Assembly: GCA_902628635.1 (NCBI GenBank) | Contig: CACONQ010000004.1 | Location: forward strand, 48,082-112,081 | Direction of reading: 5' to 3' | DNA length: 64,000 nucleotides | Source: an uncultured Pelagibacteraceae bacterium | Lineage (GTDB): Bacteria; Pseudomonadota; Alphaproteobacteria; Pelagibacterales; Pelagibacteraceae | Part shown: piece by piece, positions 57,818 to 62,683 of the stretch | How positions within the stretch are numbered: the stretch's first letter is position 1 | Layout of the letters: every line of letters starts with the position of its first letter | The notes under the pieces: generated by a model | Databases searched by the model: none | The model's input: only the letters and a program-made list of their open reading frames with translations | Told to the model about the DNA's origin: nothing | Made by a program: the position numbers and the translations under genes

Positions 57818-59509
57818 TTATTTGTCACTTACGTAAACAGAAACACCCCGAGCATTTATATCTACATCAAATTTTTTATGCAAAGGAGGAAAGGCTCTTT
57901 GAGAACAATCTAATCTATCACATGTTCTGCATGAAACTCCAATTGGAATCTCCGTTTTTTTATCCTCTAAACTTAAATTTTCAGTATAAACAAATTCTTT
58001 CGCGTATTTTGCTTCACAACCCAATCCAATAGAAAGGATACTTTTTGATTGACCAAATCTCCCAACACCTTTTTCTACTGTTCTCGCTATACAAACATAT
58101 TTTTCACCATTTGTCATTTTGCTTACAGCAGCTTGTATCACACCTGGTCTTGTAAAAGCTGAATAAACATTCCATCTTGGACATGCGCCACCGTATCGAG
58201 GAATTTCAATCCCAGATAATGAAAATCTTTTTGATATATTACCTGCTATATCAACTCTCAACATATGGAAAGGTATACCAGGTAATTTTGGATCTTGTAA
58301 ACATGTGACTCTATGTGCAACCTGCTCAAATGAAGTTGCAAAAGTATTTTGGAGCAATTCTAAATCGTACTTTAGTTTTTTACACTCAGAATGAAATAAT
58401 CTGTAAGGCATTAATATTGCAGCACCACAATAGTTTAATAATGCAATTTGTGTAAGACTTTTTGATTCATCAGAAGGAAATTTAAATTCAGATAAGTAAT
58501 CATTAATAATATCTGTTGCACCTTCCTGAGCTATCTGAGCTGCAGCATGTAATTTTTTTGTTTCTAAAGAGTTATAATCACTCAAAAGCAACTCTTTTTT
58601 TTCTTTATTAAAAATTTTTGAAAATGGTTTGCCGTCTTCAGGTATAACATCTTTGACTAATATTGAATATTCTGACTTAAGGAACTCACAAAGAGCGATG
58701 TACCTAGTACGATTATTTTTTTGAACCTTTTCGAAAATCTTGTTTGCAAAATCTTCGAGTTTTGGAAAATAATTTTTTTTTTCTTGTAAAAAATCAGATA
58801 TAACTTCTCCAGGAAATGAGGCTTTTCTACTATCAATTATTTTTCCGGATAAACTTTCAACTTTATTTATCATTTCATGATCTTTTTGTTTAAAATTATC
58901 TCCTAACTTAATTAAAGCTTTTGCTATTTTTGGATTTGTGTTAACTAGGTCTTTTACTTCCGGTCCCAAAATATCTAAATCATCGAATAATTGATCATCC
59001 AATAATTCTGATATATTATTTTCTAAATTTATTTCTGCTTTACTCGTTAAATCTGATACTTCAACTCTTAATTCTTTACTAATTTTTATAAGTAAATCCC
59101 CATCAATATTTCTTTTTCCACTTTCAATTAGATTTAAATAACTAGGTGATATATTAATTTGTTCAGCAAATTTATTAGCCTGAAGGCCTAATTGTCTTCT
59201 GAAGGCTTTTATCTTTGGACCAATTTTTAAATCTAATTTTTTTATATCTTTATCTTTTGAAAATTTACTAATAGCTATTTTTGAATTTTTTAAATCTATA
59301 TTAGTTTCACTTTGAAGATCAGCTAATTCAATTCTCAACTCCTGACAAATTCTCAAAAGAAGGTCAGCATCAATATTCCTTTTTCCTCCTTCAATTAAGT
59401 TGAGATAGCTGGGAGATATATTTAATTGCTCAGCAAGTTTATTTGCCTGAAGGCCCAGCTTTTGTCTAAAAGCTTTGATTTTTGGTCCTAATTTATTGTT
59501 TATTTCCAT
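57818..59509 (-). CDS. Short-chain fatty acyl-CoA regulator (RamB/PrpR/ScfR family) with duplicated XRE HTH
   Basis: Two ISPSYLNLIE HTH copies, SFEQVAHR, RVDIAGNISKRFS, GGACPRWNV, IGVSCRTCDRLDCSQRAFPP; divergent from aceA. Confidence 0.9.
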   Translation of the reverse strand: MEINNKLGPKIKAFRQKLGLQANKLAEQLNISPSYLNLIEGGKRNIDADLLLRICQELRIELADLQSETNIDLKNSKIAISKFSKDKDIKKLDLKIGPKIKAFRRQLGLQANKFAEQINISPSYLNLIESGKRNIDGDLLIKISKELRVEVSDLTSKAEINLENNISELLDDQLFDDLDILGPEVKDLVNTNPKIAKALIKLGDNFKQKDHEMINKVESLSGKIIDSRKASFPGEVISDFLQEKKNYFPKLEDFANKIFEKVQKNNRTRYIALCEFLKSEYSILVKDVIPEDGKPFSKIFNKEKKELLLSDYNSLETKKLHAAAQIAQEGATDIINDYLSEFKFPSDESKSLTQIALLNYCGAAILMPYRLFHSECKKLKYDLELLQNTFATSFEQVAHRVTCLQDPKLPGIPFHMLRVDIAGNISKRFSLSGIEIPRYGGACPRWNVYSAFTRPGVIQAAVSKMTNGEKYVCIARTVEKGVGRFGQSKSILSIGLGCEAKYAKEFVYTENLSLEDKKTEIPIGVSCRTCDRLDCSQRAFPPLHKKFDVDINARGVSVYVSDK

Positions 59510-59824: not shown

Positions 59825-61102
59825 ATGAGCTCGGAAACTAAAGTTTCTTATGAATTAAAAAGATTTGCTGGAATTAAAAGAGATTACACACCAGAGGAAG
59901 TGGAGAGATTAAGGGGCTCAATAAAAATTGAATATTCGATGTGCAAACATCAATCTCAAAAGCTTTGGAGATTATTAAACACAGAACCATATGTTAATAC
60001 ATTAGGTTCTTTATCAGGAAATCATGCAGTACAACATGCAAAAGCAGGTTTAAAAGCAATCTATTTAAGTGGATGGCAGGTAGCTGCTGACGCAAACAGT
60101 GCAGGAGAAATGTATCCTGATCAATCGTTATACCCATACGATAGTGCTCCTAAATTAGTTGAGTCTATGAATAATGCTTTAACAAGAGCAGATCAGATAC
60201 AACACATGGAAATAAAAGATGGAGATATGAAATCAAAAGATAGAGTAGATTACATGCTACCAATTATTGCTGATGGCGAGGCAGGCTTTGGTGGACCTTT
60301 AAACGTTTTTGAACTAGCCAAAAAATTTATTCGGGCTGGAGCTGCAGGAGTACATTTTGAAGACCAGTTAGCAAGTGAAAAAAAATGTGGTCACATGGGT
60401 GGTAAAGTTTTAGTTCCTACAGGCACGATGATTAAGAATTTAAAGGCCGCAAGACTTGCTGCAGATATTGCAGATGTTCCATTAATAATTTTAGCTAGAA
60501 CAGATGCTAATGCTGCAAAACTAATTACAAACGACCATGATGAAAATGATAAACCTTTTTTAACAGGAGAAAGATCTCCCGAAGGTTTTTATTACGTAAA
60601 ACATGGAATTGAACAAGCAATATCCCGAGGATTAGCATATGCGCCTTACTCAGATTTAATATGGTGTGAAACAGCAACGCCTAATTTGGAGGAGGCTAAA
60701 AAATTTGCTGAAGCAATACATTCAAAATATCCTGGAAAATTATTAGCTTATAATTGCTCTCCGTCTTTTAATTGGAAAAAACATTTATCAGATGCAGAAA
60801 TATCTACATTCCAACAAAAAATAAGTGAAATGGGATATAAGTTTCAATTTATAACTCTAGCAGGATTTCATACTCAGAATATTGCAATATTTGAATTAGC
60901 TGAAAAATATAAAAAAGAAGGTATGACAGCATATTCAAGAATTCAACAGCAAGAATTCGCAAGAGAAAAAGATGGTTATACTAGTGTAAAACATCAGCGT
61001 GAAGTTGGAACATCATACTTCGATGCAGTTTCGAATACTATTAGTGGTGGGCAAAGCTCAACCACCGCTATGGAAGGCTCAACAGAGTCAGAACAGTTTT
61101 AA
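59825..61102 (+). CDS. aceA: Isocitrate lyase
   Basis: [49 protein letters not shown]. Confidence 0.98.
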
Positions 61103-61128: not shown

Positions 61129-61156
61129 ATAACCCCTAGTTTTTACCTAGGGTTAT
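61129..61156 (+). terminator. Probable aceA terminator hairpin
   Basis: ATAACCCCTAG-TTTTTAC-CTAGGGTTAT with one bulged C. Confidence 0.5.
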
Positions 61157-61175
61157 CATTTAATTATGTTATAAT

Positions 61176-61246
61176 TAATTAAGGGGTGTCTTAATTGACT
61201 GAGAATATACCCTTTGAACCTGTCCGGTAATTCAGAAAGGGAATTT
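61176..61246 (+). ncRNA. TPP-family riboswitch (variant), translational
   Basis: AGGGGUG...CUGAGAA-UAUACCC-UUUGAACCU...UAAU...AGGGAA core; the aptamer 3' end is the RBS of the downstream gene. Confidence 0.88.
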
Positions 61247-62683
61247 ATGGAAAAAACTTATTTTTTAAATCAATCAACAGCACTAATTATTGTTATTACA
61301 ATTTGTTTTATTTTCGCAATTTTTGGCATAAACTATTCTAAAAGATTTAAAGGTATTAACAATTATTTAACAGCAAATAGAAATATCGGTTTTTTTTCAT
61401 TAAGCACAAGCCTTACCGCTTCTGCACTTGGTGCATGGATTTTATTTGGACCAGCTTCTGCAGCAACGTGGGGTGGAATTGGTGCTGCAATTGGATATGC
61501 TCTAGGAACAGCGTTTCCGATGATTTTTTTTATAATGCTTGGAAAAAAAATTAGAAAAGAATTTCCAAAGGGATCATCACTTATAGAGTTTTTAAGAAAA
61601 AAATTTAGCAAAAATCTATTTAAATTAATTTTACTGATGACTGTGTTTTATCTATTTATTTTTTTATGTGCTGAAATAACAGCCGTGAGTATTTTAATAA
61701 ATTATATCTCAGGAACACAGTTGTGGCTCACAGCGATTATAGTTCTGTTAGGAACTTTGACCTATACTCTTTATGGTGGTTTAAGAGCTTCAATATTTAC
61801 TGACAATATTCAAATGATTGTAACTACTATTTTGTTATTAACCTCAGGAATTTATTTATGGTCATATACTGGAAGTGAATTTTCATTTTCATTTATAAAT
61901 AAAAAAAATCCACATTTGCTAAGTTTTGAACATGTACCAAATTACACAGCTGGTATAACTTTTTTTGTTGCAGTTGCTGCAACAAATCTTTTCCACCAAG
62001 GAAATTGGCAAAGAGTTTATGCAGCAAAAAATAATAATATTTTAGTTAAAAGTTTATTGATTTCATTTTTTGTTATTATTCCAATAGTTTTTTTTATGGG
62101 TTTTTGTGGCCTAGTTGCTATATCAGTTGATCCTAATGTGATACCTGATTTAGGATTTTTCTCATTACTCTTTAAAGATCAGACCGAATTTTTATCATTA
62201 ATAATTATAATATTAGGTTTATCTTTAACCATAAGCACTGTTGATACACTTGTTAATGCTGTATCAAGTTTAGTGGTTGTTGATGGAAAGGCTACATTCA
62301 ATATTAAATCTAAAGCAGATTTTTTAAAATTATCTAAATATTTTATAATTATATTATCGATAATTGCTTTTTTTATAGCATCAAAAGGATATAGTGTTTT
62401 GTATTTATTTTTATTAGCAGATCTTTTTTGTTGTGCGTTTGTGTTAACTGTTTTCTATAGCTTTTATAATAAGAAAATGAGCGAAAAAACTGCATTTACA
62501 TCTATCTTAATAGGGTTGATAGGAGGATTTCTTCTATTTCCTGCGCCTGATTTTTCTAAAAGTTTGTTAGTAGGTATTATTTTACCTATAGAATTTTTCC
62601 CAATTTTTGTGACACAATCATTATTATTTTTATCATTTGTAGTTGCTACAACTCTACCAGTGCTAATTTGGAAGTTGAGATAA
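61247..62683 (+). CDS. thiV: Sodium:solute symporter, ThiV-like (thiamine-precursor uptake)
   Basis: SSS-family motifs (YTLYGGLRASIFTD, WQRVYAA, STVDT), about 13 TM; directly under a TPP riboswitch; ATG 61247. Confidence 0.85.
   Translation: MEKTYFLNQSTALIIVITICFIFAIFGINYSKRFKGINNYLTANRNIGFFSLSTSLTASALGAWILFGPASAATWGGIGAAIGYALGTAFPMIFFIMLGKKIRKEFPKGSSLIEFLRKKFSKNLFKLILLMTVFYLFIFLCAEITAVSILINYISGTQLWLTAIIVLLGTLTYTLYGGLRASIFTDNIQMIVTTILLLTSGIYLWSYTGSEFSFSFINKKNPHLLSFEHVPNYTAGITFFVAVAATNLFHQGNWQRVYAAKNNNILVKSLLISFFVIIPIVFFMGFCGLVAISVDPNVIPDLGFFSLLFKDQTEFLSLIIIILGLSLTISTVDTLVNAVSSLVVVDGKATFNIKSKADFLKLSKYFIIILSIIAFFIASKGYSVLYLFLLADLFCCAFVLTVFYSFYNKKMSEKTAFTSILIGLIGGFLLFPAPDFSKSLLVGIILPIEFFPIFVTQSLLFLSFVVATTLPVLIWKLR

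Follow-up and report, generated by a model that had tools for sequence, protein, structure and literature searches.

The leader of thiV in the window, the whole 64,000-nucleotide stretch analysed here, carries an RNA element that can be defined by its sequence as a subclass of the TPP riboswitch. Its pyrimidine sensor is intact, while the canonical Mg-pyrophosphate pocket is replaced by a continuous helix with G-purine and C-A mismatches. The original prediction had described an aptamer with an intact pyrimidine sensor and an altered pyrophosphate sensor, and alignment to RF00059 confirms both parts of that description. Judged by its conservation among SAR11 genomes, the variant is real and under strong selection, neither private to one genome nor decaying, and it most likely acts as a ligand-dependent translational OFF switch.

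The RF00059 (TPP) match lies on the forward strand at 61171-61259 (Infernal, 43.4 bits, E 1.7e-7) and covers positions 1-105, the full length of the model. It is visible only under an E-value threshold: at the Rfam gathering score (54.3 bits) nothing is reported for the thiV leader. Among the other Rfam families, none gives a match with a credible score. The assembly (989 kb, 84% complete) contains a single TPP-like element by RF00059 and by a variant-specific model, and a search with both models for a second or tandem copy found none; there is one element per genome. Directly downstream lies thiV (61247-62683, forward strand), which encodes a sodium:solute symporter of 478 aa (PF00474, 2.2e-20; TIGR00813), the proposed HMP importer, with 78% identity to the HTCC1062 orthologue SAR11_0811 (786575-788008). 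The symporter match and the literature (PMC11452348, PMC4260697) bear out the connection between SAR11, ThiV and HMP that had been drawn from the sequence. On the 5' side is the isocitrate lyase gene aceA (59825-61102, forward strand; PF00463, ICL), and at its end a terminator scan finds a terminator-like hairpin followed by a T-run (61134-61152, forward strand), which sets the thiV leader apart as a transcription unit of its own. A -10-like hexamer, TATAAT, occurs on the forward strand at 61170-61175, 7 nucleotides 5' of AAGGGG. The DNA around it is AT-rich and a promoter scan called no forward-strand promoter at this site; if used, the hexamer would weakly suggest a transcript starting at or just before P2, consistent with the missing P1 described below.

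The anatomy of the aptamer, all on the forward strand, follows from the Infernal alignment. The pyrimidine-sensor arm (61182-61213) consists of P2 (61182-61187 paired with 61207-61213), with GGGG at 61183-61186; P3, in which GUC(UU) at 61188-61192 pairs with (UU)GAC at 61195-61199; and the J3/2 T-loop CUGAGA (61199-61204), which holds the U39-G40-A41-G42-A43 feature. The J2/4 linker UUGAA (61214-61218), whose final AA is invariant, leads into the collapsed P4/P5 arm, placed at 61219-61240 by the Infernal alignment together with an alignment of the variant. P2, P3, the T-loop, J2/4 and L5 all match the RF00059 consensus. The second arm as a whole (61219-61242) reads CCUG-U-CCGG-UAAU-UCAG-A-A-AGGGA. 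In P4, CCU (61219-61221) pairs with AGG (61238-61240). Next to it, G61222, the equivalent of G60, stands opposite A61237 as a purine-purine mismatch, followed by the covarying pair U61223-A61236, the standard pairs C61224-G61235 and G61226-C61233, a mismatch in P5 between C61225 and A61234, and L5, GUAAUU, at 61227-61232. The arm sequence and the C-A mismatch are found as the original prediction had read them.

Both strands of the internal loop that normally receives the pyrophosphate are deleted in the alignment: the J4/5 consensus AU (A61/U62 when numbered as in E. coli thiM) and the J5/4 consensus CG (C77/G78), the latter written in upper case as highly conserved. Infernal marks two pairs of the second arm as non-standard. 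The canonical aptamer contacts the beta-phosphate of TPP through hydrogen bonds from C77 and G78 and relies on G60 and A61 to hold the Mg ions (bioRxiv 10.1101/2025.01.21.634073; PMC3764141). The proposal that GU replaces GAU and AA replaces CGU holds in that both junctions are altered; the exact pairing of old and new positions is ambiguous, since the arm can be aligned with a deletion of 2+2 nucleotides, as Infernal has it, or of 1+1 nucleotides with substitutions. In the second alignment one nucleotide would be lost per strand, A61 would possibly pair with a mutated C77, and the mismatched purine would be G78; it deserves consideration, given that G occupies the purine position in roughly half of the variant sequences. 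C77 and G78 are absent as such under either alignment, and only the G60 equivalent is invariant in the variant among the canonical phosphate-reading bases. In all, the variant lacks three of the features that define the TPP family.

The same arm is widespread in SAR11. A search of 151 sampled Pelagibacteraceae genomes with RF00059 (E <= 0.01) gives one match in each of 123, with scores of 35-72 bits, and the gathering threshold is passed in only 25 of the 151. From these matches 112, each a species, were retrieved for comparison of the arm. The design CCUG-N-CYGG-UAAU-UCAG-N'-R-AGGGA is present in 72 of the 112 species and in 11 genera, so that the comparison with other SAR11 leaders proposed at the outset, like the alignment to the full RF00059 model, shows a variant that is conserved within the clade. 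The purine position of the design is A in 36 cases, G in 35 and U in 1. Over 69 distinct sequences N and N' always pair, as A-U in 40, U-A in 24 and G-U in 5, and the C that faces an A in P5 (C61225/A61234 in the window) is replaced by a U-A pair in 6. CUGAGA and GGGG/ACCC are invariant in all 69, P2 is 96% paired, P3 contains three covarying pairs, and L5 reads GGUAAUUC in 68, its UAAU core being invariant in all 69. Since the pair flips freely and A and G share the purine position almost evenly, base-specific contacts to the pyrophosphate do not look selected in the variant.

The exact 24-nucleotide arm of the window is identical in 23 species, whose ThiV proteins share a mean identity of 76% and whose thiV genes are 44.5% identical at four-fold degenerate sites; the 5' flank, the P3 loop and the spacer between the Shine-Dalgarno sequence and the ATG are only 42-45% identical in the same comparison. 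A pattern scan of GTDB that allowed a gap of 8-20 nucleotides finds the variant arm in at least 119 species genomes, all SAR11-like, and the arm class of the window (U-A pair, A as the purine) accounts for 97 of 119 loci among the GTDB matches listed. The closed genome of HTCC1062 has the same arm as the window. A scan of viral contigs for the variant gave no match, and thus no phage-borne copies. The suggestion that the changes might be private to this assembly is refuted by these counts, and that of a decaying aptamer is ruled out because in most Pelagibacteraceae the arm either does not vary or covaries. An error of sequencing or assembly, or a degenerate copy confined to this genome, is a reading for which nothing speaks except the sub-threshold Rfam score; with the arm shared by so many species and by a closed genome, its probability is negligible, and both decay and artefact were rejected on the conservation of the arm across species.

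Helix P1 was sought through the duplex energy of the 5' and 3' flanks, cognate against shuffled or non-cognate. In the variant the cognate flanks (-1.45 kcal/mol) give no signal relative to non-cognate (-1.25, p 0.09) or shuffled ones (-1.19, p 0.07), whereas in the CG-type relatives, which serve as a positive control, the signal is clear (-5.27 against -2.17 for shuffled flanks, p 2e-12). The 3' end of the arm is occupied by the Shine-Dalgarno sequence AAGGGA (61237-61242, forward strand), whose core AAGG (61237-61240) consists of the mismatch purine and the 3' strand of P4. The spacer from AGGGA to the ATG at 61247 is 4 nucleotides, and in all variant loci it is 0-6 nucleotides, mostly 2-5. 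The requirement for a purine at 61237 may thus reflect Shine-Dalgarno function as much as ligand binding. Because the 3' strand of P4 supplies the Shine-Dalgarno sequence and P1 is absent, the 60-nucleotide aptamer (61183-61242) would constitute the whole switch, without a separate expression platform.

Set beside the canonical TPP riboswitch, or THI element (RF00059; E. coli thiM, PDB 2GDI), the variant shares the pyrimidine sensor formed by P2, J3/2 and P3 with its CUGAGA T-loop; the GAA of J2/4, the CCU/AGG of P4, the G60 equivalent and the UAAU of L5; and a site before a thiamin-pathway gene with AGGGA near the start codon. It differs in that P1 is absent, A61/U62 of J4/5 and C77/G78 of J5/4 have given way to one covarying Watson-Crick pair and a G-purine mismatch, P5 has an extra C-A mismatch, and the 3' strand of P4 doubles as the Shine-Dalgarno sequence in place of a separate expression platform.

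A covariance model built from the variant was scored on the window, its relatives and 150 other alphaproteobacterial families. It gives 86.7 bits for the window and 87.4 bits for HTCC1062, 55-59 bits for CG-type Pelagibacter, and 45.9 bits for the best match in the 150 other families. The TPP arms of the other alphaproteobacterial families (22 parsable) keep CG in 21 of 22, with C77 in 21 and G78 in 22. Since CG is nearly universal outside, the canonical state is ancestral and the collapse arose inside the Pelagibacteraceae. The closest relatives of the variant within the family are the thiV riboswitches that keep CG (genera g10, g12 and g17 and four Pelagibacter species; loci L003-L021, L031 and L036). 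They precede the same gene and share the compact translational layout with the Shine-Dalgarno sequence in AGGGA or AGGAA; unlike the variant, they retain the CG of J5/4, have a clear P1 and score 52-72 bits.

The transporters are divided along nearly the same line. In a tree of ThiV proteins, made with a quick method, rooted at the midpoint and with long branches flagged, a split with 100% SH-aLRT support separates two groups. One group lies behind the CG-keeping riboswitches and is joined by a single genus on a long branch whose arm may have collapsed independently; the other lies behind arms that lack CG, namely the variant and a sister form in genus g14. The ThiV proteins behind CG-keeping riboswitches fall on the other side of the split from ThiV of the window and are 40-48% identical to it. 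Four complete Pelagibacter genomes (L031, L036, L039 and L051) have a CG-type cassette with P1 and a ThiV 47-48% identical to that of the window, and on the tree these four proteins cluster with other genera. It looks, from tree and leaders together, as if the whole riboswitch-transporter unit had been replaced within Pelagibacter. Complete Pelagibacter genomes have exactly one thiV and one riboswitch, variant or CG-keeping, and never both.

A separate observation concerns locus L089 of genus g15, where the arm UCCG-CAUGG-UAAU-GCAUG-AGGGA is also without CG, but the ThiV, which has a long branch, groups with the CG-type transporters in the tree. The arm may represent a second, independent collapse of the pocket.

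The genes found 3' of the variant are thiV at 61 loci, a gene for an NMT1/THI5-like protein at 10 and TenA at 1; all of them belong to the HMP branch. The NMT1/THI5-like cases (L059:1674-2540 and nine other g2 loci) encode a 289-aa protein that lacks a clear signal peptide and could be either an HMP-P synthase or a binder resembling ThiY. The TenA case (L106:1673-2335) occurs in one species of the same genus, and no thiV was found within 1.6 kb of the variant at these g2 loci. As for the rest of the pathway, thiE and thiL are present in the genome of the window, which indicates that TPP is made there. No thiC was found in the 84%-complete assembly, as expected for SAR11. Nor does the assembly contain a match to thiD (PF08543), which is present in 11 of 12 genus relatives and is probably encoded in the 16% that the assembly lacks. 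A test with thiE shows no correlation between riboswitch class and pathway content: whichever class they carry, all high-quality genomes of the family (57 of 57) have thiE. That tally takes in the unpublished genome G068, on which none of the other results depends.

The mechanism proposed here builds on three observed features: the conserved aptamer-like fold, the intact aminopyrimidine pocket and the Shine-Dalgarno sequence buried in P4 directly before thiV. A ligand of the thiamin family would place its aminopyrimidine ring in the conserved CUGAGA T-loop pocket and extend across to the P4/P5 arm; the two arms would then lock side by side, aided by docking of L5 on P3. P4 would be held closed, ribosome binding blocked and initiation of thiV stopped. 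If TPP is what is sensed, the switch would provide end-product feedback on HMP import.

On the identity of the ligand we lean tentatively, with somewhat less than even confidence, towards TPP (or TPP and TMP), bound through weaker, rewired phosphate contacts; the variant would then be a miniature TPP riboswitch that represses translation of thiV. The main reason is that variant and CG-type cassettes are interchangeable: they substitute for each other within one genus, which suggests that both respond to the same physiological signal. End-product logic and the strong selection on the whole second arm would also favour TPP. Against it stand the loss of the beta-phosphate contacts, the loss of P1 and the precedent of A61U, a change that by itself raises the TPP Kd of thiM to 2200 nM (bioRxiv 10.1101/2025.01.21.634073). 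A lower affinity might suit a very small cell. From cell volume, a single free molecule in a very small SAR11 cell is estimated to amount to a concentration of some tens of nanomolar.

The ligand may instead have changed, as the original prediction had suggested, to a pyrimidine compound without pyrophosphate or with another phosphate pattern, such as HMP, HMP-P, thiamine or TMP and, less likely, HMP-PP or AmMP. The pocket would then have been closed by base pairing, the pyrophosphate being no longer needed or read, and the switch could exert direct feedback on the imported precursor. This is a serious possibility that we nevertheless hold to be rather less probable than an even chance. It is favoured by the fact that the positions that contact the beta-phosphate, near-universally CG elsewhere, are not kept as bases in the variant, where the pair alternates between A-U, U-A and G-U and the purine position accepts A and G with similar frequency, and by the restriction of the genes behind the variant to the HMP branch (thiV; the NMT1/THI5-like gene in ten species of one genus; TenA in one). 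A closed pocket would also remove the need for Mg-pyrophosphate to organise the arm. The thiM A61U mutant, with its more than 100-fold loss of TPP affinity, still binds ligands of the pyrimidine pocket (bioRxiv 10.1101/2025.01.21.634073), and HMP is reportedly cytotoxic at high concentration, its uptake attenuating within an hour (PMC11452348). A ligand that fills the pyrimidine pocket alone leaves unexplained, however, why all 24 nucleotides of the arm, mismatches included, are under strong selection, although Shine-Dalgarno function and docking of L5 on P3 account for part of it. The exchange of cassettes within one genus again argues for an unchanged signal, and HMP-PP would still require a pyrophosphate site. 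TMP and thiamine pools are in turn expected to be small in a cell without thiamine import. It is improbable, finally, that the element no longer senses a ligand and is instead kept as a constitutive element for translation or stability, masking the Shine-Dalgarno sequence, or as a protein-binding site. Such a role would fit the absence of P1, the score below the Rfam gathering threshold and the minimum free energy fold of the leader, which is non-canonical and no better than shuffles (z -1.47), a result that carries no information on a ligand-dependent tertiary fold; TPP-like aptamers of diatoms are also reported not to regulate (cited in PMC11452348). But the ligand-contacting CUGAGA T-loop, GGGG/ACCC and UAAU are invariant over the 69 distinct sequences while the flanks and the P3 loop drift, and a plain hairpin masking the Shine-Dalgarno sequence needs no base-specific conservation of unpaired pocket residues.

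Two known systems bear on the possibility of a new ligand. The HMP-PP riboswitch (thiS motif; Atilho et al. 2019, PMC6478431) is likewise very small and tied to a thiamin precursor, and provides a precedent for RNA sensing of precursors in addition to TPP. It differs in having an unrelated fold, with the aptamer embedded in a terminator and containing a pseudoknot, in being a transcriptional ON switch, in controlling thiazole-branch genes in Firmicutes, and in lacking any sequence similarity to the SAR11 variant. A terminator of the thiS-motif kind was sought between the aptamer and the ATG in the window and not found, the sole terminator-like site lying upstream at the end of aceA. The engineered thiM mutants (A61U; A61U/C63U/G78U; bioRxiv 10.1101/2025.01.21.634073) are altered at the same positions as the variant and have the pyrimidine pocket untouched. 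They were made in the laboratory as point mutants of a full-size aptamer that has P1, and they have lost TPP affinity (A61U, 2200 nM) and bind synthetic ligands, whereas in the SAR11 variant, a product of natural selection, nucleotides have been deleted as well.

SAR11 are the most abundant heterotrophic bacteria of the ocean. They are HMP auxotrophs, and their uptake shapes the picomolar concentrations of B1 vitamers in the sea. The switch on their importer is assumed to sense TPP, yet the nucleotides that read the pyrophosphate are missing across most of the clade. The HTCC1062 element was published as a 'TPP riboswitch' before SAR11_0811 (Meyer et al. 2009, PMC2704228), and the 2024 paper on uptake by HTCC7211 notes that both activity and ligand specificity still await confirmation (PMC11452348). 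A literature search for binding, reporter or regulation experiments on any SAR11 copy found none, and as far as we could find the odd second arm has not been discussed in the years since the element was annotated in 2009. That most SAR11 use a descendant of the TPP riboswitch with a ligand other than TPP, either the precursor or a thiamin compound in dephospho or monophospho form, is a possibility that we rate as appreciable but short of probable. If true, it would mean that a new riboswitch class arose when the pyrophosphate pocket collapsed and P1 was lost, and that it has been hidden under a known name. If TPP still binds, the variant would be a natural case of minimal phosphate recognition in a 60-nucleotide riboswitch without P1 or expression platform. 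In either case, the Rfam gathering threshold misses the element in about five-sixths of Pelagibacteraceae genomes, so standard annotation will overlook most thiV riboswitches of SAR11, and riboswitch-based inferences about B1 regulation drawn from marine metagenomes undercount them.

A few further observations concern single contigs and loci. A 2.9-kb contig binned as 'uncultured Flavobacteriaceae' (L166, CAYTIE010000064.1; 25.6% GC) bears the variant riboswitch of SAR11 together with a ThiV that shares 64% identity with that of the window, and is probably a misbinned SAR11 contig. The adjacency of aceA and thiV occurs only in the genome of the window among 17 variant-type Pelagibacter loci, and thiV appears to lie at differing chromosomal sites in different species. 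On the reverse strand at 57818-59509, divergent from and adjoining the isocitrate lyase gene, is a gene whose 563-aa product, a regulator, combines two HTH_3 domains and a Peptidase_M78 domain with a C-terminal ScfRs (short-chain fatty acyl-CoA regulator) domain; it is the RamB/ScfR-type partner usual for the glyoxylate shunt.
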